A stretch of DNA of 42,290 bases, filler included, from Candidatus Woesearchaeota archaeon (GTDB lineage: Archaea; Nanobdellota; Nanobdellia; Woesearchaeales; BM511), in NCBI GenBank assembly GCA_023266675.1. It is 3 parts of 3 records of this genome, joined end to end, with 100 filler letters (N's around TTAATTAATTAA, not from the genome) between each part and the next. Parts side by side here need not be neighbours in the genome. Positions count along the whole stretch, not along the records: positions 28,477 to 42,290 come from JAHFPP010000038.1; 2 more parts are not named here. One strand, written 5' to 3'. The position numbers were made by a program, and so were the translations under genes. This document shows positions 8,129 through 42,290 of the stretch, in pieces (position 1 is the stretch's first letter; every line of letters begins with the position of its first letter). A model generated the notes under the pieces. The model was not told the origin of the DNA and made no database searches. It worked only from the letters and a program-made list of their open reading frames with translations.

Positions 8129-8333
8129 AAAAAATTCTAGGCTATTTAGTCAAATAAGATATCAGTATACAAATAGATATATTTATATAGAGGTTATATC
8201 ATAAGTTAAAGGTTAATGAGTCAAAATCGATTAACAAGTCTTGAAGTTTTAAATAATAAATTTATAGATAAACAGATTATTTCCAGAAATCTTTCTTTTC
8301 ATTTGTCGGGATATAAGGTATATAATGTAGGAG

Positions 8334-8639
8334 ATGGTAAAAGTGGCAAGTCTTAATGGTTTAGATGCGAGAGTTGAAAGTGCTCCGATACAATGGGTAA
8401 CTATTGATAGAAGAGTGGAACATAACGAGAGCGGTGCTATACAACCATGTTTATACCAGTTAGCGCCAAATGAAGGACTTGTAAGTGCCCATATAATGGG
8501 TAAAACACCTGATGGAAGACCTGTTGGTAATTGTTATGAATGTAAAAGTAATGTTTTAAATCGTAGATGCGGAGATTATAGAGTTATATCTCCTCTTTCT
8601 TCGGATATGAGACATGAACCTTATGTATACGATGAGTGA
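8334..8639 (+). CDS. hypothetical protein
   Basis: 101-aa ORF with an upstream GGAG and a CxxC (CYEC) motif. Confidence 0.55.
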   Translation: MVKVASLNGLDARVESAPIQWVTIDRRVEHNESGAIQPCLYQLAPNEGLVSAHIMGKTPDGRPVGNCYECKSNVLNRRCGDYRVISPLSSDMRHEPYVYDE

Positions 8640-14403: not shown

Positions 14404-14503
14404 NNNNNNNNNNNNNNNNNNNNNNNNNNNNNNNNNNNNNNNNNNNNTTAATTAATTAANNNNNNNNNNNNNNNNNNNNNNNNNNNNNNNNNNNNNNNNN
14501 NNN
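14404..14503. other. artificial contig spacer
   Basis: 100 nt: N44-TTAATTAATTAA-N44, with stops in all frames. Confidence 0.95.
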
Positions 14504-20102: not shown

Positions 20103-20840
20103 TTATTCGGATTTAAGTTCTTCTGCTCTTCCTTTTTTTATAAGAATGTCTGCTATTTCATTTGGAAGGCTTGCCATATCATCAGGGTTAAAAGGGCCGT
20201 AGACTTCAAGCTCTTTTCCCATGAATTTAGGTATCTGTGAGAGTATTCTTAGTGTTTTTGTGTTTTTATTTGCGCCTGTATTTATCTGAAGAAAATGGCT
20301 TTCTTTTTCACGGTCGTCTTCACGTTTTTGGTCTTCAAGTGCCTCTTTTTTGTCTTTTATTTCCTTGCTTTGAAAGTTTTGAAATGAAGCGGTGTTTGCC
20401 TGTGAAAATGATCTATCACTAATCATTTTGCTAAGGATATAGTTTCTGTATTCTGAGAACGTGTCGGTTAATTTGTGGAAGAATTCTTTTTCATCATGAA
20501 GCATTGCGCTTGTGTCTGTTATTGCTGACGCGGTCCTTACTTTGTTTAGTGCAAGTATTATTATTTTTTTCTCTCTTCGTTCAAATAACTCCGTTATCAT
20601 TTTTTTTGTATTTGAAACCTGTTTCATGGTTTTTTCGCTGTCAAGGTCAGAAAATGAGCTTGAAGAGTGAGTTAATAACGAATTGTTTTTCTCTTGAAGG
20701 TATAGCTGAATATCTTGATAGAATGTTTCGTTTAGTTTTTGGAGTTCGTCGCGGTTTTTCTCACGTCTTAACAGCTCAAATATTGTCTCATACGTGATAT
20801 TGATTGTGTTTCCACTTTCACCGTTATTATTGTCCCCCAT
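20103..20840 (-). CDS. GINS complex subunit (Gins51-type)
   Basis: ITYETI...EKNRDELQKLNETFY, RREKKII, C-terminal B domain IPKFMG...YGPF...LPNEIADILIKKGRAE. Confidence 0.9.
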   Translation of the reverse strand: MGDNNNGESGNTINITYETIFELLRREKNRDELQKLNETFYQDIQLYLQEKNNSLLTHSSSSFSDLDSEKTMKQVSNTKKMITELFERREKKIIILALNKVRTASAITDTSAMLHDEKEFFHKLTDTFSEYRNYILSKMISDRSFSQANTASFQNFQSKEIKDKKEALEDQKREDDREKESHFLQINTGANKNTKTLRILSQIPKFMGKELEVYGPFNPDDMASLPNEIADILIKKGRAEELKSE

Positions 20841-22162: not shown

Positions 22163-22504
22163 TTACTTTGTTGAACTATCTTTTTCTTTTTTAATTAATT
22201 CTATTACTACCCTTTTTAATCTTGGAAGTTTGTTTGATATTATCTCAAGAATTATGTCTTTATCAATTCCAAAATATGCATGGGTGATAATATCTCTGAT
22301 TCCTATAATCCTCTTCCATTCAATATCTTTATATTCCTCTTTTAACTCTGGAGAAATACTCTTTACTGCTTCACCTATTGTCTCAAGATTTCTTAATATA
22401 GCATCAAATGCCATATCATCTTTCTTTAAATCATGCAGAGAATATCTTTCTATTTTTTTGATAGAAGAGAGTATGTCTTCAAGAAATAATTCATACTTTC
22501 GCAT
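22163..22504 (-). CDS. HEPN (HepT/DUF86) ribonuclease toxin
   Basis: DAILRNLETIGEA, W..IIGIRDIITHAYFGID (R-X4-H-X-Y). Confidence 0.93.
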   Translation of the reverse strand: MRKYELFLEDILSSIKKIERYSLHDLKKDDMAFDAILRNLETIGEAVKSISPELKEEYKDIEWKRIIGIRDIITHAYFGIDKDIILEIISNKLPRLKRVVIELIKKEKDSSTK

Positions 22505-22787
22505 AAATGGCCTCGTTTTTTACATATCTTAATGCAGGTTTTAGGTCTTCCTCCATTACAAGGTCAACCTTTCTTCTAAATTTACCCTCTAATAGAAACT
22601 TTAAATCCATATAATTATCAAAAGTCTTATTCTTGAAAACAACTAAGAAATCCAAATCACTTCCTCTTTTCTGTTCTCCTTTGGAGTATGAACCAAATAA
22701 ACCTATTTTCTTAACACTTAATGCTGTTAACTTATCCTTATTCTTCTCAAGATTCAGTATAATTACTTTAGATGTCAGTTTAGCCAT
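22491..22787 (-). CDS. minimal nucleotidyltransferase (MNT) antitoxin
   Basis: GLFGSYSKGEQKRGSDLDFLV (GS-X10-DXD), RKVDLV; overlaps the HEPN gene. Confidence 0.93.
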   Translation of the reverse strand: MAKLTSKVIILNLEKNKDKLTALSVKKIGLFGSYSKGEQKRGSDLDFLVVFKNKTFDNYMDLKFLLEGKFRRKVDLVMEEDLKPALRYVKNEAIYAKV

Positions 22788-24976: not shown

Positions 24977-25163
24977 TCCTTAACACCTCCGTGTTAAATC
25001 TCTTTAAAGACATACCCTGATTTTTTTGGGTCATGTCAAAACATGCTGGCGATTTTGCCAAGCATGCTATAGGCTTTACCTCTTTAGGCAATATGCTTTC
25101 TTTGCAGTTTTCGTCGTCACTTCGGTTTTTTCAAACCGCTTGAATAGCTGTAAACTGCCAAGA
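24977..25163 (-). promoter_or_regulatory. structured 5' leader of the S-layer gene
   Basis: Four consecutive stem-loop units between the inferred transcription start and the ATG. Confidence 0.6.
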
Positions 25164-25185
25164 TTACATAAGATTTGAGTTTTGC

Positions 25186-25200
25186 TTTATAAACCTTTCG
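25186..25200 (-). promoter_or_regulatory. BRE-TATA promoter of the S-layer gene
   Basis: Minus strand reads CGAAAGG-TTTATAAA, matching the archaeal consensus. Confidence 0.7.
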
Positions 25201-25500
25201 TAAATATTTATTTGTAATTTTTATAAACATGCTTATCAAAGGCTAAAACCTTTGATAACTGCACTCTTGGATGTTTGTAACTTTGCAATAATAACGAAGC
25301 CTTTTTTGGGTTTTTACATGATTATTTATAAACCAGGATTAATGCTTTTTAAATAAAACAGATTAATCCTACTTGTTTAGTTAATATTTACTTATACGGC
25401 TTAATACAAGTCTGGCATAATGCCTATATATAATCATACCTAATTATAAGAATATCTAATTTAGTTAAGATTTAAATAGTTGTGTTAAACACTTTTTTAT

Positions 25501-28376: not shown

Positions 28377-28476
28377 NNNNNNNNNNNNNNNNNNNNNNNN
28401 NNNNNNNNNNNNNNNNNNNNTTAATTAATTAANNNNNNNNNNNNNNNNNNNNNNNNNNNNNNNNNNNNNNNNNNNN
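28377..28476. other. artificial contig spacer
   Basis: 100 nt: N44-TTAATTAATTAA-N44. Confidence 0.95.
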
Positions 28477-28477
28477 A

Positions 28478-28975
28478 GTTGTAAACCAGTTGCTTACAGA
28501 AATTGACGGCCTTGTTGAAATGCATGACGTCGTTATAATTGGGGCAACAAACAGACCTGACATACTTGATACAGCACTGCTTCGACCAGGACGTTTTGAC
28601 AGGATAATACTTGCAGGTGTACCTGACGAAAAGAACAGATTAAAGATATTTAATATTCATACAAAGAATATGCCGCTTGATAAAGATGTTAATTTAAATG
28701 AGCTTGCAAAGAAAACTGAAGGTTATGTTGGCGCAGACATACAGGCAATATGCAGGGAAGCAGCAATATTCACATTGCGAAAAGAGGAGCTAGTAAAAGA
28801 GAAAGAAGTAAGGGATGACATAAAGATAAGCATGTCAAGCTTTGAAGAAGCATTAAAGAAAGTTAGACCATCAGTATCACGAGACGTTGAAGAGATGTAC
28901 AAAACAATGAAAGACCAGTTCTCAGCTGCGAAATCAAAAGAAATGCTTGCAGACAAACCTAATTATTACGGATAG
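28478..28975 (+). CDS. CDC48/VCP-family AAA+ ATPase, C-terminal fragment
   Basis: VVNQLLTEIDG, GATNRPDILDTALLRPGRFD, GYVGADI, KVRPSV, C-terminal YYG (HbYX). Confidence 0.92.
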   Translation, partial: VVNQLLTEIDGLVEMHDVVIIGATNRPDILDTALLRPGRFDRIILAGVPDEKNRLKIFNIHTKNMPLDKDVNLNELAKKTEGYVGADIQAICREAAIFTLRKEELVKEKEVRDDIKISMSSFEEALKKVRPSVSRDVEEMYKTMKDQFSAAKSKEMLADKPNYYG

Positions 28976-29045
28976 CTTGTATTATAATTTAAATTCTTAG
29001 AAATTATTTAAAAATATTAAAATAAAAAAAATATTAAAAGTAAAA

Positions 29046-29450
29046 TTATTCAGTGACTTTTAAAGTTCCCCACTGACCGCCTGCTCTGTGCCCTGGAACT
29101 GAACAGTAGTAGATGAAGTCTCCAACTTTGTCAGCTGTGAATTCAATAACTGTTTCCTGATTTAAAGGTGTCATTTCCTTAATTCCGTATTCATCAATTG
29201 TAAAATCGTGACTTCCTTTTGTGTTTGTGATTTTTACTCGAACTTTGTCTCCTTTCTTAACGTCAATTTCTTTAAGTGAGAACCATTTTCCTTTGTCATC
29301 ATAATAAGACGTCATGGAAAATTCTTTGACAGCTGCGGCGTTTTGTGCAGTATTTGCTGCTGTGTTGGTTGCTTGTCCTTGCTGCTGGCTGCATCCTGCT
29401 AGGGCAACTAATCCAAGCACTAAAAACATTATTAAAACATATTTTCTCAT
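29046..29450 (-). CDS. cupredoxin-domain lipoprotein
   Basis: Lipobox LAGC; HDF...YYCSVPGHRAGGQ type-1 Cu ligand set. Confidence 0.88.
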   Translation of the reverse strand: MRKYVLIMFLVLGLVALAGCSQQQGQATNTAANTAQNAAAVKEFSMTSYYDDKGKWFSLKEIDVKKGDKVRVKITNTKGSHDFTIDEYGIKEMTPLNQETVIEFTADKVGDFIYYCSVPGHRAGGQWGTLKVTE

Positions 29451-29686
29451 TTTTCCACCTCAAAAGTGCATATTTGCACAATTATACTCTAAACAACTTT
29501 GAAGGGTGATTTCGTATTTTATTTAAATATGATGTTTAACAAGAATTAATATAGATGAGATTGTAAGAGGATAAATGAATAATTTTAATATAAAAAAGTA
29601 GAAAGTACTCAAAAAGTTTAAATGGTTCTGTAAGATACCATATTGTTTCCAAAAAGTTTATAACAAACAATTATTTAATCTAGTTT

Positions 29687-30439
29687 ATGGCAGAAAGAGA
29701 TGATATTGTAAAGTTCCTTAACAAAGAGTTAAATGTAAAAAAAATTAGAGATTCATCCAAAAATGGACTTCAGGTTAAAGGAAACCATGAAATTAAAAAA
29801 ATTGGTTTTGCTGTTGACGCGTGCCTTGAGACTTTTGAAAAAGCAAAAAAAGAAGGATGTGATATGGTGATTGTCCACCACGGAATCTACTGGAAAAAAA
29901 GTTATTCATCAGATAAGATAACAAACAAGAGAGCTGATTACTTAAGAAAAAATAATATATCGCTTTACGCATCGCATCTTCCTTTGGATTTGCACAATAA
30001 ATATGGAAACAACATTGAACTTTGTAGGATACTTGGATTGAAAAATGTAAAGAAGTTCGGAAAATATCATGGTGTCCCAATAGGATACCAAGGGAGATTT
30101 GATAAGCCTGTTAATATTATTAGTATATCAAAAAGTCTAGATAAAAAACTTAATACTAAATCTGTAATTTCTGCCAAAAAAGTTATGATAAGAAGCGTTG
30201 GTGTAATTAGCGGCGGCGGAATCTCATGCCTTGAAGAAGCAGAATATAAAAAGCTAGACTGTTTCATTACAGGCGAAGAATACCATTCGTCATTTCATGA
30301 CATAAAGGAATCAAAAATCAGTGTTATTCTTTCAGGCCACTACGCAACCGAAACACTTGGTGTCAAGGCACTGATACCGCTTCTTAAAGAAAAGTTTAAT
30401 GTAAATACAGTGTTTATTGACGCACCGACAAAATTATAG
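29687..30439 (+). CDS. Nif3-like dinuclear metal-centre protein (YbgI family)
   Basis: NGLQV, VHHG, SHLPLDLH, GNN, TGE, GHYATE. Confidence 0.95.
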   Translation: MAERDDIVKFLNKELNVKKIRDSSKNGLQVKGNHEIKKIGFAVDACLETFEKAKKEGCDMVIVHHGIYWKKSYSSDKITNKRADYLRKNNISLYASHLPLDLHNKYGNNIELCRILGLKNVKKFGKYHGVPIGYQGRFDKPVNIISISKSLDKKLNTKSVISAKKVMIRSVGVISGGGISCLEEAEYKKLDCFITGEEYHSSFHDIKESKISVILSGHYATETLGVKALIPLLKEKFNVNTVFIDAPTKL

Positions 30440-30576
30440 AGTTAGTATTATGGATAAATATTTCTTCATTAATAGTATTAGTGCCCCTATACTTTGTCGT
30501 TATAAGAAATATGTCATGATAATTAAGTTATGAGATATAGAAATCTTTAAATAAAGTCTTAATTCTTTTTGTCTTT

Positions 30577-31872
30577 ATGACATATAAGCCGGGCGACAGC
30601 GTAAAAGTTTTTACAAAAGAAGAGACTATTGAAGGAGTAGTGCTGCCAAGACCTGAAATGCTTGAAGGAGATTTTCTGATAATAAAGCTTGAAAATGGTT
30701 ATAATATAGGAGTAGACAAGAAAAAAATTGAAAAAATTGAATTAATAAAGAAAGCAATACCTCCACTTATTCAAAAAAAAGAAATTATAACCAATCCTAA
30801 TCTTCCAAATATTTCAATCCTCTCTTATGGAGGAACAATATCGTCAAAAATAGATTACAAGACAGGAGGGGTTTACGCAGACCTCACAGCAGAGGATTTT
30901 GTAGCTATGTGCCCTGAACTCGAAAAAATAGCTAATCTTAAGGCAAAAAAAGAGATGAACATGATGTCTGAAGATTTTGATTGGAACGTTTGGGAGCGCA
31001 TCGCAAAGGATGTTGAAAGAGAGCTAAACAGCGGACAGGATGGGGTTGTCATTACACAAGGTACTGACACTCTCCATTACACAACTGCAGCGCTATCATT
31101 TTTTCTAAGAAATATTTCAAAACCAATAATAGTAACAGCATCACAGCGTAGCATTGACCGCGGTTCAAGCGACGCTTTCATAAACCTTATCTGCTCAGTA
31201 AAAGCAGCTGCAAATTTTGACGGCGCTGGAGTGTATTCATGTCTTCATGGAACTAACAATGATGATTACTGCCTCCTGATAAGAGGAACAAAAGTTCGAA
31301 AGATGCATACATCAAGAAGAGATGCGTTTAGACCAATAAACGAACTCCCAATAGCAAAAGTGTATCCTTCTGAAAAAGAAATTGAGATAATCAATAAGAA
31401 TTATGTTAATAAAAACAATGGGAAAGTAATTCATAATACTAATCATGAAAAAAAGATTGCAATGATATATGTGCATCCAGGTATAAATCCAAAAATAATA
31501 GATTTCTATCTTGAGAATAATTATAAAGGGATAGTTATAATGGCAACTGCCCTAGGACACGTTCCTACAATAATAGAAGAAAACTCATTTTTACCGTTTC
31601 TAAAAAAATGCAAAGAGAAAGCAATACCTGTTGTTATTGCAACCCAAACAGTATATGGTCGAGTTCACCCGCTTGTATATACAAACCTAAGAAAACTGTC
31701 AATTGAATATGACTGCATTTATGTCGAAGACATGCTTCCTGAAGTAGCTTACATAAAGCTTGGATGGGCGCTTGGACAAACACAAAACAAAAAGGAAGTT
31801 AAAGAATTAATGCAAAAAAATATTTCATATGAAATGAATGAAAGAATTGATGAAGAAAACTTTTTGTACTAA
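30577..31872 (+). CDS. gatD: Glu-tRNA(Gln) amidotransferase subunit D
   Basis: KLENGYNIG, GGTISSKIDY, GTDT, SQRSIDRGSSD, KMHTSRRDAF. Confidence 0.97.
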   Translation: MTYKPGDSVKVFTKEETIEGVVLPRPEMLEGDFLIIKLENGYNIGVDKKKIEKIELIKKAIPPLIQKKEIITNPNLPNISILSYGGTISSKIDYKTGGVYADLTAEDFVAMCPELEKIANLKAKKEMNMMSEDFDWNVWERIAKDVERELNSGQDGVVITQGTDTLHYTTAALSFFLRNISKPIIVTASQRSIDRGSSDAFINLICSVKAAANFDGAGVYSCLHGTNNDDYCLLIRGTKVRKMHTSRRDAFRPINELPIAKVYPSEKEIEIINKNYVNKNNGKVIHNTNHEKKIAMIYVHPGINPKIIDFYLENNYKGIVIMATALGHVPTIIEENSFLPFLKKCKEKAIPVVIATQTVYGRVHPLVYTNLRKLSIEYDCIYVEDMLPEVAYIKLGWALGQTQNKKEVKELMQKNISYEMNERIDEENFLY

Positions 31873-31887
31873 ACAAAGAATAAAAAA

Positions 31888-33684
31888 ATGACTGAAAAAA
31901 TTGATTATGAAAAGATTGGATTAATGTGCGGCATTGAAGTTCACCAGCAGATTGATACGAATAAGTTATTTTGCAGCTGCCCAAGCATTGTAAGAGATGA
32001 CAAGCATGAGTATGAGGTAAAAAGAAACCTCCGGGCAGTAGTTGGCGAAACTGGAGAAATAGACGTGGCAGCTGCGCATGAACAAAGCAAAGAAAAACAT
32101 TTTCTGTATTACGGATACAAGGATTCTACATGCCTTGTAGAGCTTGATGAAGAACCACCGCATGTCATGAATAAGGAAGCGCTTGATATCGTTCTTCAAA
32201 CATCATTAATGCTTAATGCAAAGATAGTTGACGAAATACAGGTTATGCGTAAAACAGTAATTGACGGCTCAAACACCACAGGTTTTCAAAGAACTGCGCT
32301 TGTTGCAAGAGGAGGAATTATAGAAACCAAAAGCGGAAAAGTCGGCATACCAACTATTTCTATTGAAGAAGAATCATGCAAAATAGTTAAGCGTGAGAAA
32401 GAATTTGATATATACAATCTTTCAAGGCTTGGAATACCACTTATTGAAATAGGGACATCCCCAGATATAAAAACACCTGTTCATGCGCGTGAAGTTGCAG
32501 AAAAATTAGGGATGATACTTCGAAGCACTGGAAAAGTAAAGAGAGGAATTGGAACAATAAGGCAGGATGTTAATATATCAATAAAAAATGGAGTACGTGT
32601 GGAAATAAAAGGCGCTCAGGATTTAAAGTCATTGGCAAAGCTTGTTGAAAATGAAGTTGTCAGACAACAAAGCCTTCACACACTTTCAAAGAATATTCAT
32701 GTCTCAAAAGTACATGACCTTACAAAAATGCTTGAAAAAACTTCATCAAAGGTGCTAAGAAAAACACTTGACAACAGTGGAGCTGTGCTTGGCATAAAGA
32801 TAGAAGGATTCTCCGGAAAATTCAAGTGGGAGATATGTGAAGGGAAAAGATTTGGAACAGAGCTGTCTGATTACGCAAAGGCAATTGCAAACGTTGGCGG
32901 ACTGTTTCATACTGACGAGCTTCCAAATTATGGAATAAGTGAGGATGAAGTTGAATCGATAAAAAAAGAACTTCATGTAAAAGAGAATGATGCATTTATA
33001 ATAATTGCTGACAACAAAAAAGTTGCAGAAAAGGCGCTTGAAGCAGTTACGTTCAGAATTCATAATCCGCTGATTAAGGAAGTAAGAAAGGCCAATGAAG
33101 ATGCAACAACAACATTTTTACGTCCTATGCCTGGTGCTGCAAGAATGTACCCGGAAACTGACACCGTACCAATAGTTCCTGATGTGAAACATATTAAGCT
33201 CCCTGAACTTATTGAGGATAAGATAAAAAGATTTGAAAAAGAGTATGGACTATCAAGTGACATCGCAACACCAATAGTGAAAGAAGGAATGGAATTTGAG
33301 GCTATTGTCAGGAAGTACAAAAAAATAACTCCGTTATTTATTGGTAATCTTTTAATAAATACCCCAAGGGAGATAAAACGAAGATATCTGAAAGATGTTG
33401 ACGTTATGATCCACATTGATGAAATACTGCCAAAACTTGAGAATGGAGAGATAACAAATGAGGCTGTCTTTGAGATATTTGTTGATATAGCAAACGGAAA
33501 CAGAATTGACTATTCAAAATACTCACAATTAAACGAGAAAGAAATTGATAAAGAAATAGAAAACATAATTTCTGATAACAAAGATAAAAGTAGCGGTGCA
33601 ATTATGGGGATTGTGATGAATAAGTTCCGTGGAAAAATTGACGGCAAAAAGGTTTCTGAAATTGTTAATAGGCATTTGAAGTAA
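31888..33684 (+). CDS. gatE: Glu-tRNA(Gln) amidotransferase subunit E
   Basis: GIEVHQQ, DEEPPH, MRKTVIDGSNTTGFQRT, RGIGTIRQDVN, RPMPGAARMYPETD. Confidence 0.97.
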   Translation: MTEKIDYEKIGLMCGIEVHQQIDTNKLFCSCPSIVRDDKHEYEVKRNLRAVVGETGEIDVAAAHEQSKEKHFLYYGYKDSTCLVELDEEPPHVMNKEALDIVLQTSLMLNAKIVDEIQVMRKTVIDGSNTTGFQRTALVARGGIIETKSGKVGIPTISIEEESCKIVKREKEFDIYNLSRLGIPLIEIGTSPDIKTPVHAREVAEKLGMILRSTGKVKRGIGTIRQDVNISIKNGVRVEIKGAQDLKSLAKLVENEVVRQQSLHTLSKNIHVSKVHDLTKMLEKTSSKVLRKTLDNSGAVLGIKIEGFSGKFKWEICEGKRFGTELSDYAKAIANVGGLFHTDELPNYGISEDEVESIKKELHVKENDAFIIIADNKKVAEKALEAVTFRIHNPLIKEVRKANEDATTTFLRPMPGAARMYPETDTVPIVPDVKHIKLPELIEDKIKRFEKEYGLSSDIATPIVKEGMEFEAIVRKYKKITPLFIGNLLINTPREIKRRYLKDVDVMIHIDEILPKLENGEITNEAVFEIFVDIANGNRIDYSKYSQLNEKEIDKEIENIISDNKDKSSGAIMGIVMNKFRGKIDGKKVSEIVNRHLK

Positions 33685-33742
33685 GCATTGATTGTCCTAA
33701 TTAGAACTGTTTTAATTATTAATTTAAAGATTATTTTCTTGT

Positions 33743-34714
33743 TTATTTAAAATCCCAAAGCCCTTTAAATGTTATTATTGAAAGACCTATAAGTGTTATA
33801 ACTGAATCTTTTGCCCTTATAATTATTGACGCCGCGATACCAAGCGAAGAGCTTAAATTCAAGATTGAAAATGCGGAAAGCTGCCCTGCTTCAAGAACCC
33901 CTACTGCAGCAGGTATCGGTATCATGTAAGCAAATCCGACAAAACTTATTACAACAAAAAGTTGTATGATGTTTGCGTTAAACCCTAGTATAAGGAAAAG
34001 AAGTTTGTACTCTAAAAACATAAATATCCACATTGAGAAACTTAGGAGCAATGATATAAAAAATGTCAATTTATGATTTCTAAAAAACATATTTATGTTA
34101 TCATCTGTTTTCTTTATATCTTCGTCTATATTCTTAAAAGATTTTATTCTGTCAAGTCTTAAAAATTTGTAAATTGAATGAAGAGTGTTTCCTTTTTTTA
34201 CAAATGCAATAAACGCCCAGACAAGGAGAATAATGCATATTGATGAAAGTATTATAAGATTAATTTTTTCCTGCCTTTGAAGTGTAAAGCTTAATATCGT
34301 AATCATTATGCCTATAAAAACAAAAAACCCGTTGGATATAATTTCAAGTGATTTGTCAATAAAAATCGACGACACTCCTTCGGAATACGGGACATTATTC
34401 TCTTTTAGCATTGCAGCCTTTAAAGGCTCCCCGCCAATGTGTGCCGTTGGAGTAATATAATTAATGCTGTACCCCATTATCTGAAAAATAAAAAGTTTTC
34501 TAAAAGGAATATTATGATTTGTTGTTTTTAGTATAATCTTCCATTTAAGTGTGTGTACGGCAAGAATCAGGAAAACCAAGAAAATGTAGGACAATAAGAT
34601 ATAAAGTGGCGCTTCCCTAAATGGAAGAAGAATTTTTCCAATTGAAGAGTATATGATAACCGTGAGTATAACTCCGAGTAATAGTGATATTGTGAAGATA
34701 AATCTTTTGTTCAT
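33743..34714 (-). CDS. lysylphosphatidylglycerol-synthase TM-domain / flippase-like membrane protein (UPF0104)
   Basis: NYITPTAHIGGEP, PAAVGVLEAG, many TMs. Start moved to ATG 34714 because the longer call overlaps the tRNA. Confidence 0.88.
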   Translation of the reverse strand: MNKRFIFTISLLLGVILTVIIYSSIGKILLPFREAPLYILLSYIFLVFLILAVHTLKWKIILKTTNHNIPFRKLFIFQIMGYSINYITPTAHIGGEPLKAAMLKENNVPYSEGVSSIFIDKSLEIISNGFFVFIGIMITILSFTLQRQEKINLIILSSICIILLVWAFIAFVKKGNTLHSIYKFLRLDRIKSFKNIDEDIKKTDDNINMFFRNHKLTFFISLLLSFSMWIFMFLEYKLLFLILGFNANIIQLFVVISFVGFAYMIPIPAAVGVLEAGQLSAFSILNLSSSLGIAASIIIRAKDSVITLIGLSIITFKGLWDFK

Positions 34715-34763
34715 ATTAATTAAATGATTTGAAGAGTTTAAATAGTTTGCTGGATTAGTAAAG

Positions 34764-34838
34764 CGCACGTGAGAGGATTTGAACCCCCGACCCTCACATT
34801 AGGAGTGTGATGCTCTATCCAGTCTGAGCTACACGTGC
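34764..34838 (-). tRNA. tRNA-Arg(CCU), intronless, no encoded CCA
   Basis: Acceptor GCACGTG/CACGTGC, D arm GCTC/GAGC, anticodon arm TCACA-CTCCTAA-TGTGA, T loop TTCAAAT. Confidence 0.96.
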
Positions 34839-34943
34839 ATTTATTATAAGAAAATACAATTATTTTTTAAAACTATAGGTAAAAAAGCAGTTTATTGTAG
34901 AAAAAGAGCTGTTTTTTAAATATATTAAAAATAATAAAGTAAA

Positions 34944-35882
34944 ATGTACAAAATCAAACAGATTCCGGAAGATTTTATTGTGATGGAGATTAATAAACTG
35001 GATTTTGACGAAAACGGCGAGTACTCATATTATCTTTTAAAAAAGAAAAACTACAATACGATTGACGCGATAAGTAAAGTTTGCAATATTTTTAGGGTTG
35101 ATGATAAATTTGCAAATTTTGCAGGTACAAAGGATAGAGTTGCAGTTACAGAGCAATATATTTCAATTAACAGAGGACCAGAAAAAGATTTGAATTTGAA
35201 TGATATTGAATTAAAATTTCTTGGGCATGGTAAAGAGCGACTTAATCTTGGAATGCTTGATGGTAATGTGTTTGAGATAACTGTAAGAAATATAATAAAG
35301 ATACCAAAGAAAAATGAAAAACTTCTGATAATAAATTATTTTGACGACCAGAGATTTGGAAAGAACAATGATAACCATATCATTGGAAAACTGATAATAA
35401 AAGGAAAATTTGAAGAAGCCTGTAAAATGCTTCCTGAATGCGAAGCTATACTAAGTGGCAGCCCAAATAATTTTGTTGGAGCTTTAAGAAGCATCCCAAA
35501 AAAAATATTGAAGCTGTACATACACGCTTATCAGTCACATCTTTGGAATAAAACTGCTGAAGAAATATCCAAAAAACAGAAAACCAACATAAAAATCCCG
35601 ATAATTGGTTTTGGAACTGAATTCAATGAGAAAAAGATAGAAAAAATATGCGAAAAAATACTAAAAGAAGAAAATGTGAATTTAAGGGAATTCATTATCA
35701 GGAAAATTCCTGACCTGTCAGATGAGGGAACAAAAAGAGATTTATATGTAATACCAAAAAATCTTGATATTGGAAAGCTTGAAGATGATGAACTTAATTC
35801 CGGAATGCAAAAAGTGAAGATAAAGTTTTTTCTGCCGCCAGGCGCATATGCGACAAATGTTATTAAGAGTTTATTTGAATAA
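34944..35882 (+). CDS. truD: tRNA pseudouridine(13) synthase TruD
   Basis: IKQIPEDFIV, catalytic AGTKDRVAVTEQ, GNVFEI, NYFDDQRFG, HAYQS, FFLPPGAYAT. Confidence 0.95.
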   Translation: MYKIKQIPEDFIVMEINKLDFDENGEYSYYLLKKKNYNTIDAISKVCNIFRVDDKFANFAGTKDRVAVTEQYISINRGPEKDLNLNDIELKFLGHGKERLNLGMLDGNVFEITVRNIIKIPKKNEKLLIINYFDDQRFGKNNDNHIIGKLIIKGKFEEACKMLPECEAILSGSPNNFVGALRSIPKKILKLYIHAYQSHLWNKTAEEISKKQKTNIKIPIIGFGTEFNEKKIEKICEKILKEENVNLREFIIRKIPDLSDEGTKRDLYVIPKNLDIGKLEDDELNSGMQKVKIKFFLPPGAYATNVIKSLFE

Positions 35883-35898
35883 TTAAAAAGAATTAAGT

Positions 35899-36525
35899 TT
35901 ATCTCTCAAGTTTCTTCACAATGTCTTTGAAGACTTTCTCTATTGGCTGCTCGCCGTTGATATCAATTATTTTTCCTAGATTAGTGTAATGCTCGATTAA
36001 TGGTTTTGTTTTCTCGTGGTAAACTTTTAGCCTTTTTCTTATTGTTTCAGGCTTGTCGTCATCTCTCTGAAAAAGCGGTTTTTGGCATACGTCACAGACG
36101 CCCATTTTCTTTGGCGGATTAAGTGTTACGTGATAAACGTGCCCATTGATACACGTTCGTCTCCCTGCAATCCGATTTATTGCTTCTTTGTCTTTTGTGC
36201 TTATGTTTATTGCAAACTCGGTCTCAAGGAATCCTTCAAGCATGTCTGCCTGCTCAATGTTTCTTGGAAAGCCATCAAGTATGTAACCGTTTTTGCAGTC
36301 ATCTTCCAAGAGTCTTTTTTTAATTATTCCAAATGTTATGTCATCAGGAACAAGCTTTCCTTGGTTTATTATATCCTCAGCAAGTTTACCAAGTTCTGTT
36401 TTTTGCTTGATGTTCTCCCTGAATATGTCACCTGTAGAAATATGAGGAATACCATATTTTAATGAAAGTCTTTTTGCCTGCGTTCCTTTTCCGCATCCCT
36501 GAGGACCTATTATTAGTAGATTCAT
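35899..36525 (-). CDS. adk: adenylate kinase (bacterial-type, with LID domain)
   Basis: GPQGCGKGTQ, HISTGDIFR, GKLVPD, ILDGFPR, QRDDD. Confidence 0.96.
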   Translation of the reverse strand: MNLLIIGPQGCGKGTQAKRLSLKYGIPHISTGDIFRENIKQKTELGKLAEDIINQGKLVPDDITFGIIKKRLLEDDCKNGYILDGFPRNIEQADMLEGFLETEFAINISTKDKEAINRIAGRRTCINGHVYHVTLNPPKKMGVCDVCQKPLFQRDDDKPETIRKRLKVYHEKTKPLIEHYTNLGKIIDINGEQPIEKVFKDIVKKLER

Positions 36526-36529
36526 AAAA

Positions 36530-37012
36530 TCAACCCAAATAATTTAAGATATCTTCGTTAGTATTTGTTTCAGAGTCCCATATATCCCGGAATAAGACAA
36601 GCTGTTTTTTTATTCCTTCTTTTAGATGCTGCCATTCTTTGTAGAATTCCTTTATGTACTCGGCTTCCGCGCGTTCATCATATGTCAAAGAAAGTATATT
36701 TGCGTCCCTACCGTACCTCATAAGTCGTTTGTATATCTTGAAAAGTTCTGTTTTGCTCTCTTCATCAAAAACTTTTGATTCGTAAATATTTGAAAGTGTT
36801 GCGTCTCCTTCAAATATATTGCCAAGAACACTAATGTAGAAATCTATCTTATCACTCATTTTTCTTCTTATCTTTGAAAGAACGTATTTGTCTGTCTCTT
36901 CATCCATCATCCCAAAATCATTTTCCAGGCTGTCAAAAGACGGCAAGTTAAACTTTTTCTGCAAGGGTTGGTATTCTTTTTTCAGTTCATTTTCATCTGT
37001 TTTTTCAGCCAT
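36530..37012 (-). CDS. hypothetical alpha-helical protein
   Basis: 160-aa ORF 4 nt upstream of adk, ending in YLG. Confidence 0.8.
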   Translation of the reverse strand: MAEKTDENELKKEYQPLQKKFNLPSFDSLENDFGMMDEETDKYVLSKIRRKMSDKIDFYISVLGNIFEGDATLSNIYESKVFDEESKTELFKIYKRLMRYGRDANILSLTYDERAEAEYIKEFYKEWQHLKEGIKKQLVLFRDIWDSETNTNEDILNYLG

Positions 37013-37123
37013 AATATCACATTTATCAGTTGATTAAACACCAAATAACCGCTTATTTATAAAAACTGCGTTTTTGTAAGTCGATAACCAAATGAATGTG
37101 ATTAATAGTAGTGAAAGCATTGA

Positions 37124-37684
37124 TTATCTATATTTGTCATGTTTTAAATTAAGAAATGATAAAGATATTATGCCTAAAAACCCTGTAAAGGCCATAATTG
37201 GAATATTAATGAATCCGAATATTGTAAGGTACCCTACAAAACAAGAAGGTCCTGAAGCTGAACATAAGGTTACAGTTGATTGATAAGTGAATATCCCTAT
37301 ATTGTGATAAATTGATATCAAAATACCGATTATGCTTAATGGAAGTGTGTAATATTGAAAATCCTTTCTTTTGAAATACAGTGCGGACGCAAGGATTGCT
37401 GCCTGCGAATACATGAATATTCTTTGAAACCAACAAAGCTTGCACGGTTCTATACCTGCGACTTCTGAGAAGAATAGGCTTCCGCATGTTGAAATTAAAG
37501 CAATTATAAAAACAAGAAGCAGTGCATTGTTTTTTAAGAACTTTATTTGCTTATCAAGAAATTTGGATGAATGTTTTGTTATTTTTTTAATTAAAAGGTA
37601 TAATGAGAAGAAGATGATAATTAAGAGCAAACATATTACTAAAACTGATAATGATTTTGATACAATGTCTACAAGCAGCGTCAT
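37124..37684 (-). CDS. disulfide bond formation protein DsbB/BdbC family
   Basis: EPCKLCWFQRIFMY, second Cys pair CSASGPSC, IPIMAF, TM helices. Confidence 0.92.
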   Translation of the reverse strand: MTLLVDIVSKSLSVLVICLLLIIIFFSLYLLIKKITKHSSKFLDKQIKFLKNNALLLVFIIALISTCGSLFFSEVAGIEPCKLCWFQRIFMYSQAAILASALYFKRKDFQYYTLPLSIIGILISIYHNIGIFTYQSTVTLCSASGPSCFVGYLTIFGFINIPIMAFTGFLGIISLSFLNLKHDKYR

Positions 37685-37743
37685 TTTTTACGTTAAATCA
37701 TGAATATTCAAGATTTTTTAAGATTTTTATTTAATATAAAAAA

Positions 37744-37863
37744 AGCCCCTGGAGGAAATTGCATCCTCGACCTGCAGATTGCTTATCTACAAAAACATTG
37801 TAGCTACAAGTTTCGACAAAGAATTTCTTCTTTCTGCCGCAATAGCTACTATGCTACAGGGGC
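37744..37863 (-). tRNA. tRNA-Thr(UGU) with two introns (37812-37833 at position 30/31; 37780-37804 at position 37/38)
   Basis: Acceptor GCCCCTG/CAGGGGC plus U73. Removing the 22-nt and 25-nt inserts gives GCAGA-CTTGTAA-TCTGC. Each insert forms a BHB-like 4-bp helix with the exon. Confidence 0.88.
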
Positions 37864-37902
37864 ATAGTTATAGACTAAAGAAAAATGTTCTATTTAAAAA
37901 TA

Positions 37903-38544
37903 TTACTCTTTAATACCTAAAATTCCAAGTTTATCTTGATGTTTCGGGTTTGGAAAACCTATTTCTTTATCCCACTTTTTAAGCATTTCATATCCATTAA
38001 TGGTAAGTCTAAGCCCTTCATTCCAATTTGGCTTATTCTTATTTATTGTCCATATTGAAGTTTTATATCCTAAATTTCTAAGAATACTGTTTATTTGTAA
38101 CATCAATTCCTTTGAAACATTGCACATTTCTATTCTTGGATAAATCTTTGTTTTATTAGCAAGAAATGTGTTTATACTTCCATCTGTACTTACAAATCCT
38201 CTTAAAAATGCTTTTTGGAGAGAAACATTTTCACATATCTTTTTAGGAATAATAACCTTATCTTTCTTGCCTAAAGGCAAACCTAATATTTTATGCTTAA
38301 AATTTACAATTTCTTTATTATGAATTCTAAATCCAATTGTTCCTTTTGACCATGGCTTTAAGTTTGGTTTTATACCATAAACTTCATTATACAAAGGAAT
38401 AATGTGATTAGTCATATACTTTTTATCATCGATATGATGACAAGCTAAAGTATAAGTATAAACTCTGTTGTAAATGTTCATGCTTCCGTCACCAACATGA
38501 ACTCCAGTTTCTTCTGCTAATTTCTCGTTAAGTTTAAATTTCAT
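37903..38544 (-). CDS. free-standing LAGLIDADG (DOD, intein-type) endonuclease-like protein
   Basis: Two motifs, LAEETGVHVGDGS and KAFLRGFVSTDGS; IGFPNPKH tail; GGAGGT SD before ATG 38544; no intein splicing domains. Confidence 0.9.
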   Translation of the reverse strand: MKFKLNEKLAEETGVHVGDGSMNIYNRVYTYTLACHHIDDKKYMTNHIIPLYNEVYGIKPNLKPWSKGTIGFRIHNKEIVNFKHKILGLPLGKKDKVIIPKKICENVSLQKAFLRGFVSTDGSINTFLANKTKIYPRIEMCNVSKELMLQINSILRNLGYKTSIWTINKNKPNWNEGLRLTINGYEMLKKWDKEIGFPNPKHQDKLGILGIKE

Positions 38545-38756
38545 TTTAAAAACCTCCAAATTTTAGTTTAATTGATACTTTGGAGTTTAATCAAAAAGAG
38601 AGCGTTTAGCATAACTGCATAATTGATTTTTGCAATAATATTCAAAAATTATTATTTAGCGGTTTTGTGTAGTCTCTTTTTAGAAAAATAAAAAGAATTA
38701 GTTTATATATTTCTCGTGCATAGCTGTCCAGTGAGTCCAGTGTATTATTATCGTCG

Positions 38757-39404
38757 CTATAGTCCTCTTTCGAGGTGGAAGTTCTTCTGGTCTTCCTGAA
38801 ATGTCGCGACATTAAAGAAGTCTTTCATTGCATCCTGAAGGTTTCTTGCACGAACTCTTATATCATTTCTATATCCTTCAAATATTGGTTTATACCATCG
38901 TTTTCGAAAGAAATGGAATAATATTGGACCCATTAGTGGGTGTTTTTTAACATCCTGGTCAAATATTTTAATATATACCTTAACCCTTACTTTAAGCTCC
39001 CCCTCCTGTGCTGTCATTTTTCTTCCGCCAACGACCGTTTCTGTATTTCTCATAAAGAGGTTTGTAAAATTTAGATCCATATAGTATCTGTATCTGCTGG
39101 TGCCTCTTGAGTGGAACTCTGGATTATATACTAGTCTCCACCATATCCTTCTCTGCATGTTGCCGTTTGGCTCACGCCACTCTTCAAAGAAAGTTTCAAC
39201 TCGTTCATCCTCTTCACCTTCGTCTTCAGCAGCTCTCCATCCTTCCTCAGTAAGGTACCAGTAAACGAATTTATAAAAATTTTTCATATGAAATACTTTG
39301 ACAACCCTGAATTCAAACTCATACAGTGATTTGCCTTCAACACCTAAAGAATCGCTTCCCTTGTCTTTGGTGCTTTTGAATCTTGGAAAATTAGGATATG
39401 CCAT
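38757..39404 (-). CDS. hypothetical protein
   Basis: About 215-aa aromatic-rich ORF with a TATA box about 25 nt upstream. Confidence 0.75.
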   Translation of the reverse strand: MAYPNFPRFKSTKDKGSDSLGVEGKSLYEFEFRVVKVFHMKNFYKFVYWYLTEEGWRAAEDEGEEDERVETFFEEWREPNGNMQRRIWWRLVYNPEFHSRGTSRYRYYMDLNFTNLFMRNTETVVGGRKMTAQEGELKVRVKVYIKIFDQDVKKHPLMGPILFHFFRKRWYKPIFEGYRNDIRVRARNLQDAMKDFFNVATFQEDQKNFHLERGL

Positions 39405-39476
39405 AAGTATATACTGCATCTAATAGTTTATATAATTAACGATTATGCCGCCAAGAAGTAGATTATATGATTAAAT

Positions 39477-40289
39477 TCAACTTTTTTTAAGTATATAGTT
39501 CTCTTTTCCATCTGTGGCCCAGTTCCATGGTCTTTCATTTACTTTATGGTCACATTTTACGTAAGTGTCACACCATATCTTCATTTTTAATTTTTCCCGC
39601 ACATCCATACAAAATATTACGTCGTCAAACCCGCCCATTGTGTTTTCCCTAAACTCTATTTTTTCGAGTACCTCGCGGTGAATAAACAGGCATCCTGAAC
39701 CGCACATTTTTATCTCGATTAATTTATCTTCTTCAACTTCTTCAGCGCTTAAGTGTCTTCGTATGTTATTAAAATTAAAATTATTTTTCTTTAATGTATT
39801 GTAAAAAGATGGTTGCTTTTTTTCTATGTTTTTAAGATTAGACATGATTTCCTTTTGTTGAATTTCACTAAACCATCCGTAAAGCAAAGGTAGTTTTCGC
39901 TCTTTGCCGTTGATAGTGAAATAATTGTAATAAATGCCTGTTAAAACCATTTTTTTATCAGATAAGAATCTTTTTAGCGTATCTTTTGGTGGAATAACAT
40001 CCTGGTCAACATTGAAAAAATATTCATAACCCTCTAAAAGAGCCTTGGTTCTAAGCATGTTTCTGCAATAAACCATTCTTTTTTTTATTCCAGTAAGATT
40101 ATATCCGTCTCTAACCATTGGAATTTTGTCTTTGAATTTATTGTAAAATTCATCATTGTCTGAGTTGTCTATCAAAAGAATGTCATAATTTGGATAATCC
40201 AGTGATAAAAGCCCCTGTATAAATTTTTCTGTGCAGTACTCATGATGGCTTGAAACAGGTGCTCCGACAAGTATTTTTGGATAATTCAT
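39477..40289 (-). CDS. glycosyltransferase family 2-like protein
   Basis: LDYPNYDILLIDNS, RNML, VDQD (DxD), GSGCLFIHREV, DDVIFC. Confidence 0.88.
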   Translation of the reverse strand: MNYPKILVGAPVSSHHEYCTEKFIQGLLSLDYPNYDILLIDNSDNDEFYNKFKDKIPMVRDGYNLTGIKKRMVYCRNMLRTKALLEGYEYFFNVDQDVIPPKDTLKRFLSDKKMVLTGIYYNYFTINGKERKLPLLYGWFSEIQQKEIMSNLKNIEKKQPSFYNTLKKNNFNFNNIRRHLSAEEVEEDKLIEIKMCGSGCLFIHREVLEKIEFRENTMGGFDDVIFCMDVREKLKMKIWCDTYVKCDHKVNERPWNWATDGKENYILKKS

Positions 40290-40338
40290 ATTATTGATAT
40301 TAATATTACAAATAAAAACTTTGCTAAAAACACTGGAG

Positions 40339-40589
40339 TTGTAGAAATCATAACTTTTACCGCGAAGTTTATGAGCGTTATATCAATAAAACATTAAAAT
40401 GCTGTTGGGGGAAGTCCCACAACGTTTTAAAAAACCTTGACTAAAACAGTTCGGACTATTTATTATAACTAAATAGTCCTTAATATCGAGCGTTAACTGA
40501 CGAAACGGTTATTCCTCATGGGGTGACAGCAGCAAGATAAAACATGTAAAAAGCGAATTTCGCGTAAAGTTAAAAGAAGATTTCTACAA
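40339..40589 (+). ncRNA. unclassified structured RNA-like element
   Basis: About 30-bp interrupted closing helix plus at least three internal hairpins, with G-U wobbles consistently on the + strand. Confidence 0.6.
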
Positions 40590-40637
40590 AGTCAAACACA
40601 GCAAAACTTTTTATATCAAGCGTAAATTCGTTGTTTT

Positions 40638-41837
40638 ATGCTAGTTGGAATTGTAGGAAAGCCGAGTTGCGGCAAAAGCACGTTTTTTAAAGCGTCAACG
40701 CTTGCTGATGTAGAGATAGCTAATTATCCTTTTACAACCATTAAGCCAAATCACGCCGTTGGTTTTGTGAGGGTAGACTGTGTTGACAAGGAATTTGGAA
40801 AGCAATGCAAGCCAAGGATAGGCTACTGCGTTGAGCACCAAAGATTCGTGCCTATCGACATGATTGACGTTGCAGGTCTTGTGCCCGGGGCACATGAAGG
40901 ACTTGGTATGGGAAACCAGTTTTTAGACGACCTTAGACAGGCGGATGTTTTAGTTCACGTAATTGACGTTAGCGGAAGCGTTAATGAAAAAGGAGAATCA
41001 GTTGTGCCTCTAAGCTATGACCCTGCAAAAGACATAAAATTTCTGGAAGAAGAACTTGACTTTTGGTATCTTAACGTTTTTAAGAAAGTTTGGGAGAAAT
41101 TTGCAAGAACAACACAAGCTGCTCATGAAGATGTTAATAAAGCGATTTCAAAACAATTTTCTGGACTGCGAGTTACAGAGAATATGGTAAAAGACACATT
41201 AAAAATGCTTACGCTTCATGAAAAACCAGTAATTAATTGGACTGATGAAGAATTATTCTCTGTTGTAAGAGAATTTAGGAAAAAAACCAAGCCAATGATT
41301 ATTTCCGCTAATAAGATTGACGTGCCTGGCGCAGACAAGAATTTTGAAAGGTTAAAAAAAGAGTTCCCTGACTACATGATTGTGCCAAGCAGCGCAGAAA
41401 GCGAACTTGCACTTCGCGAAGCCGCAAAACATGGGTTGATTGATTACGTTCCTGGCGCATCAGATTTCAAGATAAAAGATGAAACAAAACTTAATGATAA
41501 ACAAAAAAAAGCTTTGGAATTTATCAGAGCAAACATTCTTCAAAAATTTGGAAAAACTGGCGTACAGGAAGTTTTGGACAAAGCAGTTTTTGAATTTCTT
41601 GGTTATATCGCAGTCTACCCTGGCGGCGTAAATAAATTAGAGGACAGCGAAGGAAGAACTTTGCCTGACTGTTTTTTAATGCCTAAAGGCACAACAGCGC
41701 TTGACTTCGCCTTTAAGCTCCATACAGATTTTGGGAAAAACTTTGTTAAAGCAATAAATGTGAAAACAAAAATGCCAATAGGAAAAGACGTGCCTCTTGA
41801 AAACAGAAGTGTTATAGAGATTATGAGCAGTAAATAA
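40638..41837 (+). CDS. ychF: YchF/Obg-family NTPase with TGS domain
   Basis: GKPSCGKST, NYPFTTI, DVAGLVPGAHEGLGMGNQFLDDLR, NKID, DFAFKLHTD. Confidence 0.95.
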   Translation: MLVGIVGKPSCGKSTFFKASTLADVEIANYPFTTIKPNHAVGFVRVDCVDKEFGKQCKPRIGYCVEHQRFVPIDMIDVAGLVPGAHEGLGMGNQFLDDLRQADVLVHVIDVSGSVNEKGESVVPLSYDPAKDIKFLEEELDFWYLNVFKKVWEKFARTTQAAHEDVNKAISKQFSGLRVTENMVKDTLKMLTLHEKPVINWTDEELFSVVREFRKKTKPMIISANKIDVPGADKNFERLKKEFPDYMIVPSSAESELALREAAKHGLIDYVPGASDFKIKDETKLNDKQKKALEFIRANILQKFGKTGVQEVLDKAVFEFLGYIAVYPGGVNKLEDSEGRTLPDCFLMPKGTTALDFAFKLHTDFGKNFVKAINVKTKMPIGKDVPLENRSVIEIMSSK

Positions 41838-42290
41838 TTATCCTATTGCTGTTGTTACCCATGTTTGTGTTTGCGTGTATGTGCCTGCCGGCATGTATGC
41901 AGGGACTTGTGGTATGCAATAGTTTATGCTTTGATTGTTTAACGTTTCAGTTACATACGTTGTTTTTTGCATCTGAGCACCAGGAATATTAACGTCGGTG
42001 TTGTTGATTAATTGTTTTGCGCTTGAATTGCTTTCAAAATAAGTAGTCACATTATAATAAACCTTAATTGTAACGTAATCGATGTACGCTGTCGCGTAAG
42101 ACGCGTTGACTGAAATTGATACGCCGAAGTTTCCGCTGTTGATGTCTGACGCAGTCCAGTTTTCCCCCCACAAATCAGTTGATGAACCATAAGTGAAGTT
42201 TTCATCACTTACACTCCAACTTGTTGAATTAACTTTATTTGTAGAACCGATTGTGCCATTGCTTTTTACAATACTAATGCGAGAATCTTT
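41838..42290 (-). CDS. C-terminal part of a Ser/Thr/Asn-rich surface protein, 5'-truncated by window edge
   Basis: Frame open from 42290: KDSRISIVKSNG...YGSSTDLWGENWTASDINSGNFGV...PAGTYTQTQTW; many N-glycosylation sequons. Confidence 0.75.
   Translation of the reverse strand, partial: KDSRISIVKSNGTIGSTNKVNSTSWSVSDENFTYGSSTDLWGENWTASDINSGNFGVSISVNASYATAYIDYVTIKVYYNVTTYFESNSSAKQLINNTDVNIPGAQMQKTTYVTETLNNQSINYCIPQVPAYMPAGTYTQTQTWVTTAIG

Follow-up and report, generated by a model that had tools for sequence, protein, structure and literature searches.

A structured 259-nt element upstream of ychF in a Woesearchaeota genome, probably a decayed miniature inverted-repeat transposable element

A miniature inverted-repeat transposable element, or MITE, is a non-autonomous DNA transposon that has nothing but terminal inverted repeats and an interior rich in palindromes. 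The bacterial palindromic MITE-like repeats Correia/NEMIS, ERIC, RUP and BOX are short and non-coding with inverted ends, insert beside promoters and form RNA hairpins when transcribed. The element described here, found in the genome of a Candidatus Woesearchaeota archaeon (GCA_023266675.1), is small (259 nt) and intergenic, lying between the promoters of a predicted glycosyltransferase gene and of ychF; it differs from these bacterial repeats in its domain of life, its termini and its sequence, which is not known to be related to theirs. The window, meaning the whole 42-kb stretch of DNA that was analysed, consists of three contigs joined together, with the element on the third of these (28477-42290). 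The element is probably an old and decayed MITE, and one that has probably become immobile.

With 105 MITEs per Mb, a Woesearchaea genome is listed in the accessible portion of the study concerned as one of the densest in such elements among archaea (PMC11602168). On the strength of that portion the kind of element is already known, since a high MITE density in a Woesearchaeal genome has been published, and the present copy would merely be a new, worn member. A full-text literature search returned no paper joining "miniature inverted" with "Woesearchaeota", and the available part of a 2026 Nanobdellota preprint makes no mention of MITEs, insertion sequences (IS), RNase P or signal recognition particle (SRP) RNA.

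The element and a MITE family of related archaea

As redrawn here, the element and its flanks have the following parts:

40335-40593, no strand assigned: whole element, 259 nt, MITE-like, made up of the core 40339-40589 and 4 nt on each side
40335-40370, + strand: left terminal inverted repeat, with the tip GGAG (decayed), the perfect 11-mer 40339-40349 and the boxes TAACTTT and CGCGAAGTTT
40555-40593, - strand: right terminal inverted repeat, with GAATTTCGCG, AAAGTTA, the perfect 11-mer 40579-40589 and the tip AGTC
40394-40430, + strand: hairpin A, imperfect, closing on GGGG-GAAG-UCCC, with two G-U pairs and one C/A mismatch
40453-40479, no strand assigned: palindrome B, perfect over 10 bp with a 7-nt loop, GGACTATTTA/TAAATAGTCC
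40493-40527, + strand: small alternative hairpins C (TAACTG/CGGTTA) and D (GTTATTCC/GGGGTGAC, three G-U pairs)
40326-40334, no strand assigned: 9 nt flanking the left end, AAAAACACT, a possible worn target-site duplication
40594-40602, no strand assigned: 9 nt flanking the right end, AAACACAGC, a possible worn target-site duplication

The terminal repeats consist of 11 perfect base pairs, TTGTAGAAATC (40339-40349) being fully complementary to GATTTCTACAA (40579-40589), inside imperfect arms of ~35 nt. Further inward TAACTTT (40351-40357) pairs with AAAGTTA (40566-40572) and CGCGAAGTTT (40361-40370) with GAATTTCGCG (40555-40564), the latter pairing including two G-U pairs. Adding the 4-nt tips gives a terminus of 15 nt in which three positions are mismatched.

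The relatives used for comparison were 80 loci obtained from a YchF scan of genome contigs, here given L numbers, most of which are labelled Woesearchaeota or Nanoarchaeota while several have other archaeal labels. They amount to 1.18 Mb, or 1,224,838 bases once the window is added. When long inverted repeats were sought, recurrent elements came to light, of 122-257 nt, that start with GGC, end with GCC and have perfect inverted termini of 13-19 bp. Flanks were tabulated for 16 candidate elements and for the window element, and nine of the 16 fall into this GGC-terminus class:

L011, 4467-4609: perfect abutting 9-bp direct repeat
L014, 9167-9330: perfect abutting 9-bp direct repeat
L015, 5916-6114: perfect abutting 9-bp direct repeat
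L050, 5911-6065: perfect abutting 9-bp direct repeat
L070, 8871-8992: perfect abutting 9-bp direct repeat
L070, 9002-9180: perfect abutting 9-bp direct repeat
L009, 605-861: flanks matching at 8/9
L076, 827-992: flanks matching at 7/9 (hand count)
L078, 2812-3056: flanks matching at 6/9 (hand count)

These nine elements are MITEs, because target-site duplications of 9 bp abut the ends of six of them. Their interiors are strongly folding (z <= -3) in six cases out of the nine. The family, which may already be among the MITE sets published with PMC11602168, leaves out L080, L045, L023, L054 and L005, which have other termini and no abutting repeat, as well as L029 and L047, with a different terminus.

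The relatives also possess an autonomous element with termini of this type. A full-length IS of 1,581 bp (L052 11919-13499) has a 15-bp GGC-type inverted terminus and encodes a DDE transposase of 436 aa, which matches Pfam DDE_Tnp_IS66 with 28.3 bits (cut-off 23.1) and, more weakly, IS6, IS240 and MULE. At least 707 relatives of this transposase were found at E<=1e-5, mostly on contigs of ~1.5-2 kb, as is expected for a repeated IS, and one of them is named "ISNCY family transposase [Nanoarchaeota archaeon]". This transposase is present in none of the other loci. Pairs of 1.6-kb candidate "IS" in L005 and L020, suggested by a fuzzy terminus search, encode no transposase relative and were rejected.

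The ends of the window element, GGAGTTGTAGAAATC on the left and, as reverse complement, GACTTTGTAGAAATC on the right, resemble in register the termini of the L015 MITE, GGCTCTGTAGAAA(A/G)T: the right end agrees at 11 of 13 positions and the left at 10 of 13 (hand count). An agreement of 11/13 with any of the nine family termini occurs at only 9 of 84,108 window positions which, with ~13 registers, gives a chance of ~1e-3. In a position weight matrix (PWM) built from the heterogeneous family termini, the right end ranks 31st of 84,550. The window terminus can be written GG/GA-N-N-T-TGTAGAAA, to be set beside GGCTCTGTAGAAA in L015. The element is also like the family in its length, which is just above the range of 122-257 nt, in its interior of nested palindromes and in its intergenic site. 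It differs in that its tips are decayed, its perfect terminus is 11 bp rather than 13-19 bp, its flanks match at 6/9 instead of 9/9, and its interior, with a GC content of 0.34 compared with 0.42-0.66, is dissimilar in sequence. The two flanks, AAAAACACT and AAACACAGC, agree at six positions in register and also have the 6-mer AAACAC in common, which is suggestive of a worn duplication but could be chance in A-rich DNA. As for the L052 IS, its GGC-type terminus has a core, GGC.CTGTAG, that recurs in the L015 MITE, and TGTAG recurs in the window element, but the IS is 1.58 kb long, has its own transposase and its contig ends at its target site.

Other repeats were observed in these loci. The two family MITEs at L070 8871-9180 are different from each other and stand in tandem, with one copy of a CTTTTTTAT duplication in common and with shared internal motifs CGTCTGTGCCACGAGA and GGCCAGGCG. 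A third type of terminus, GTA[A/T]TTGTTTAG[C/T]T, is common to L029 9556-9954, L047 2001-2184 and L004 9047 and 11452; in L047 an abutting AAAAGAAA duplication was seen by eye, which the longest-word test did not report.

The ychF locus with and without the element

The genes and promoters on either side of the element are as follows:

39477-40289, - strand: glycosyltransferase gene, GT-A-type, 270 aa, with weak domain matches; neighbour of the element
40638-41837, + strand: ychF, encoding a YchF/YGR210-type Obg-like GTPase of 399 aa; neighbour of the element
40306-40325, - strand: promoter of the glycosyltransferase gene, with a transcription factor B recognition element and TATA box (BRE/TATA), AGCAAAGTTTTTATTT, outside the element and directed away from it
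40600-40616, + strand: BRE/TATA promoter of ychF, AGCAAAACTTTTTATATC, beginning 7 nt past the right end of the element

A TTTTTAT-type box is located 23-34 nt before the ATG of both genes. The distance between promoter and ATG is equal for the glycosyltransferase gene and ychF, and elsewhere in the window TTTATAAATA-type boxes keep it as well; the BRE/TATA boxes of both neighbours are of the usual kind for this genome. Since each neighbour has its own BRE/TATA box, both promoters have the element on their upstream side, and it is part of neither untranslated region. The T-run/TATA of the ychF promoter begins 11 nt past the right end of the element.

The nearest relative among the 80 loci is L042, whose YchF is 71% identical. 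It has the order adk-hyp-hyp-ychF with a spacer of 63 nt upstream of ychF, and the element is absent. Relative to L042 the window has two extra blocks, one consisting of DsbB and a LAGLIDADG open reading frame (ORF) and the other of the glycosyltransferase gene and the element. The spacer upstream of ychF is no longer than 150 nt in 60 of 78 relatives. Being absent from L042 and from the short spacers of most relatives, the element is not a conserved feature of the ychF locus. When the element and one flank are removed from the window sequence, the boxes AGCAAAG-TTTTTAT and AGCAAAAC-TTTTTAT come to stand back to back, each ~31 nt from its ATG, in a spacer of ~80-90 nt, which is a normal size in the relatives; this empty-site comparison is made with distant relatives (YchF at most 71% identical) in which the glycosyltransferase gene is also absent.

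Both blastn and nhmmer yielded nothing significant in the 80 loci, and a single-sequence covariance model (R1), a tool that is weak for distant homologs, recovered only the element itself from the 1,224,838 bases, the next best hit having 13.5 bits (E 0.16). A phage collection gave no match and a plasmid collection three short AT-rich matches with E >= 0.09. With no homolog in the 80 loci, the phages or the plasmids, there was no covariation to be counted as evidence of compensatory base changes.

Several of the long spacers upstream of ychF in relatives are as structured as that of the window (L001, z -6.2; L028, z -8.7; L029, z -5.5/-7.9; L011, z -4.4/-4.7), and an Rfam search of 11 loci with long spacers found only rRNA and tRNA. 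In L022 a repeat of ~210 nt with GTGCATAGC-type inverted ends is present in five copies within 21 kb (9740-9960, 2539-2750, 20285-20396, 8281-8390 and 3677-3771), the spacer upstream of ychF included. Flanking direct repeats (GAACTAT, GGCAC) were noted by eye at two of these copies, and the repeat looks like a second MITE family.

Five of the nine GGC-terminus MITEs are found within 1.2 kb upstream of ychF. From the end of the MITE to the TATA box of ychF, which follows downstream, the distance is 14 nt in both L011 and L076, compared with 11 nt for the window element. Three different MITE copies in three lineages, if the window element is counted as one, at 11-14 nt before this TATA box hint that targets close to promoters are preferred or that the site is a permissive hotspot.

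The history of a decayed MITE at this site may be pictured as follows. A DDE transposase, from a group of IS common in Woesearchaeota/Nanoarchaeota, would have bound a non-autonomous element in trans at its GGC-type inverted termini. Insertion would have been into the AT-rich stretch separating the two promoters, at 11 nt upstream of the TATA box of ychF, with duplication of 9 bp. Subsequent decay would account for the three mismatches within the first five tip positions and for three of nine in the duplication. Transposition would then be the origin of this copy, whose termini and flanking duplication survive only in part, and the copy would by now be fixed and have lost its mobility. The "closing helix" of the preliminary description would correspond to the pair of terminal inverted repeats and the inner hairpins to internal palindromes typical of the MITE family, with the RNA-like fold a by-product of MITE architecture. 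The effect on the two promoters would be at most one of spacing or insulation.

Fold of the element and competing explanations

Every pairing listed in the preliminary description is present at its place, as are CTTGA/TCGAG, TAACTG/CGGTTA, GGAAGTCC (40410-40417), GAAACGG and GCAAG; hairpin D forms only when G-U pairs are allowed. On the + strand the predicted fold has an energy of -68.0 kcal/mol, as against -42.6 +/- 4.1 for 200 dinucleotide shuffles (z -6.15), none of which was as good. The - strand folds with -57.9 kcal/mol (z -3.85), and the element as single-stranded DNA has a z of -3.49. Inclusion of the flanks, to 40335-40593, adds a G-C pair, a G-U pair and a 2x2 AG/AG loop. Palindrome B has a local inverted alignment score of 42, the value for 200 shuffles being 24.8 +/- 5.0 with a maximum of 44. 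The 11-bp inverted repeat taken alone is at chance level, the window having 17 such 11-mer pairs with gaps of 60-500 nt and Markov simulations 15.3 +/- 5.2, and its significance lies therefore in the nesting of the helices. The GC content of the element (0.34) is that of the background, the tRNA of the window having 0.55, and no ORF of 20 aa or more is found inside it.

The term "unclassified" was correct, as no Rfam family fits the element. At gathering scores a tRNA-Arg was the sole match in the whole window, and a search of the 521-nt slice 40200-40720 at E<=10 with lax filters gave three chance matches of 12-17 bits, for which the cut-offs are 61-97. Several other classes of element were considered and rejected. 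ARAGORN found no tRNA in 40290-40637 even with relaxed settings and introns allowed; for a replication origin or integron attC site, the window has no Orc1/Cdc6, integrase or transposase; and a K-turn at the 1x6 internal loop is missing the G-A step from the non-bulged strand (by eye).

Several observations weigh against a decayed MITE. In place of GGC, the element has GGA as its outermost bases on the left and, read as reverse complement, GAC on the right, and the left end ranks only 234th of 84,550 in the PWM, which is too diffuse to be decisive there. A 6/9 flank match has a chance of ~0.03-0.1 in A-rich DNA by our own estimate. The interior has no similarity to the L052 IS or to the family MITEs, no second copy of the element is found in the 42-kb window, which is a small part of the genome, or in the 80 loci, and no transposase is encoded in the window. 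The interior alone (40371-40554) folds better on the + strand (z -3.12, 1/200 shuffles as good) than on the - strand (z -1.28, 23/200), and the well-paired helices have five G-U-type transition mismatches on the + strand compared with one of A-C type (hand count; one-sided p ~0.11). This interior bias and G-U excess, judged on sequence, would be the pattern expected of selection on a + strand RNA. Such an RNA could be a lineage-specific (orphan) non-coding RNA (ncRNA) of ~260-275 nt, perhaps exapted from a MITE, transcribed from an AT-rich box that also serves the divergent promoter of the glycosyltransferase gene and ending at the T5 run at 40606-40611. Beside the folding of the + strand, the prevalence of G-U among the non-Watson-Crick stem pairs and the lack of an ORF, this explanation can call on a AAATAAAAA box 21-28 nt before 40339, a T-run 17 nt after 40589 and tandem G-A pairs which extend the closing helix. 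It is nevertheless unlikely. The box and the T-run are already accounted for by the promoters of the neighbours, the GC content is that of background and not of tRNA, no homolog was detected by covariance model, blastn or nhmmer, and the element is missing from the syntenic site of L042 and from most relatives. The strand difference in energy is ordinary, 28% of 251-nt windows differing by at least 10 kcal/mol, and with five mismatches against one the case for selection at RNA level that had been read from the G-U pairs is weak. The inner hairpins are no argument for an RNA gene either, because the interiors of the family MITEs fold strongly too. A distinctly unlikely variant is that a structured + strand RNA, MITE-derived or formed de novo, acts between the outward-firing promoters as an insulator or regulator of the glycosyltransferase gene and ychF or, more broadly, that the family prefers sites 11-14 nt upstream of archaeal TATA boxes; were this so, insertions at that distance, three times at ychF, would suggest that the pre-initiation complex or its bent DNA is the target.

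Regulation at the level of DNA would see in the two 35-nt arms mirror-image transcription factor sites for both divergent promoters, derived from an inverted duplication of promoter-proximal DNA. The inverted similarity does reach both promoters, 40302-40369 against 40556-40628 scoring 40 where 500 shuffles give 24.5 +/- 4.6 (maximum 41), and each 11-mer is 17-19 nt from its own TATA box. We consider this improbable, as that part of the similarity which falls in the promoters is the BRE/TATA consensus general to this genome, the 11-mer is not repeated at other promoters in the window, and both the 180-nt interior with its own hairpins and the match to MITE termini are left unexplained. Compatible size, the long terminal helix pairing the 5' and 3' ends and short motif echoes raised the possibility of an RNase P or SRP RNA that has diverged strongly in a DPANN archaeon: GGAAGTCC would resemble P4 on its 5' strand, and AGCAGCAAG would resemble helix 8 of SRP RNA on its 3' side. 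Hallmarks of RNase P RNA are the conserved 3' strand of P4 with the CR-V motif and the P2/P4 pseudoknot order, while those of SRP RNA are a helix 8 with a GNAR loop and conserved internal loops. On the 521-nt slice RNaseP_arch, RNaseP-T, Archaea_SRP and small SRP gave no match even at E<=10. The motifs GCTTA and ACAGAA, and with them a 3' partner of the ACAGAA...GCUUA type, do not occur in 40339-40589, the helices are strictly nested and not in the P2/P4 order, and the hairpin before AGCAGC has a UCAU loop, there being no GNAR-capped helix 8. With its GC of 0.34, its wrong topology and its absence from relatives at the ychF site, the element is most improbable as either RNA and this reading is close to refuted. 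The ribonucleoprotein form of RNase P is near-universal in Archaea, according to the accessible portion of the source (PMC6380272).

A decayed MITE therefore stays the probable explanation on the evidence of family, ends and locus. The preliminary description was right that no known family is matched, that the element is part of neither neighbour's transcript leader and that it is neither RNase P nor SRP RNA. Its proposal of a novel functional ncRNA is not borne out, as homologs with covariation are lacking in the 80 loci, the nearest relative has an empty site and the ends match a MITE family. Of its other proposal, an RNA-based mobile remnant, the mobile remnant probably stands; the remnant would be DNA-based rather than RNA-based because its ends match DNA transposon derivatives flanked by target-site duplications. 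Multiple copies with such duplications, which it had named as pointing to a MITE, exist for the family in relatives, while the element itself is present as a single copy in 42 kb of its genome.

Other features of the window and significance of the element

The gene content of the window is archaeal, including GatD/GatE, an ATP-dependent DNA ligase, FtsZ, an S-layer protein, aIF2-alpha and a GINS subunit, and its GC content is ~0.34. Runs of N around a TTAATTAATTAA six-frame-stop linker at 14404-14503 and 28377-28476 are the contig joins. As to the two neighbours named in the preliminary description, the YchF-type GTPase is a firm assignment (YGR210-like_G4, E 8.6e-39), whereas the glycosyltransferase is a weak one, with Pfam Anp1 at E 8.7e-6 (below the Pfam cut-off), GT2 at E 1.5e-3 and DxD-type motifs; tblastn of this protein against the 80 loci gave no match at E<=1e-5. 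A weak NCBIfam Drt3a match of the same protein (E 0.011) raised the idea of a retron or defence-associated reverse transcriptase, which was rejected on the GT-A motifs and the Pfam Anp1/GT2 matches; PADLOC found nothing.

At 37124-38559, a DsbB-like ORF and a free-standing LAGLIDADG ORF separate genes which in L042 are next to each other, a second lineage-specific insertion in the conserved adk...ychF block. Adjoining this DsbB and LAGLIDADG block, in the spacer 37685-37902, is a cloverleaf-like structure of 120 nt (37744-37863, - strand) with a 7-bp GCCCCUG/CAGGGGC stem and three arms followed by a U-run (fold z -4.77). It has no Rfam match at E<=1, and ARAGORN reports it as an intron-bearing tRNA (anticodon ACA) at relaxed thresholds only; the structure is possibly that of an intron-containing tRNA of unusual form, or else of some tRNA-like RNA. 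The half-site TTGTAG, common to 37798-37809 and the element, is not enriched in the window (29 matches, 24 expected).

Other spacers are structured also. The 524 nt upstream of the S-layer protein gene (24977-25500, - strand) contain many hairpins (z -7.12) and could be a long structured leader or harbour further repeat elements. In the divergent nitroreductase/DNA ligase spacer, three near-perfect hairpins are found at 1368-1550 (z -4.56), one of which starts with GGACTATT, as does hairpin B of the element; this shared palindrome is not enriched either, with 28 matches and 32.5 expected. At 22163-22787 (- strand) genes for a HepT-like RNase and an MNT-type nucleotidyltransferase overlap as a pair, an arrangement that suggests a toxin-antitoxin module.

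The element serves as a cautionary case, in that a decayed MITE can give a convincing RNA-like fold, with a z of about -6, nested helices, G-U pairs and no Rfam match. Three checks settle such cases fast, namely those of family termini, of target-site duplications in relatives and of the reconstructed empty site. For the organisms themselves, it appears that tiny Woesearchaeota-like genomes carry palindrome-rich MITE families which have 9-bp duplications and match an abundant IS, and that these MITEs repeatedly land just upstream of promoters.

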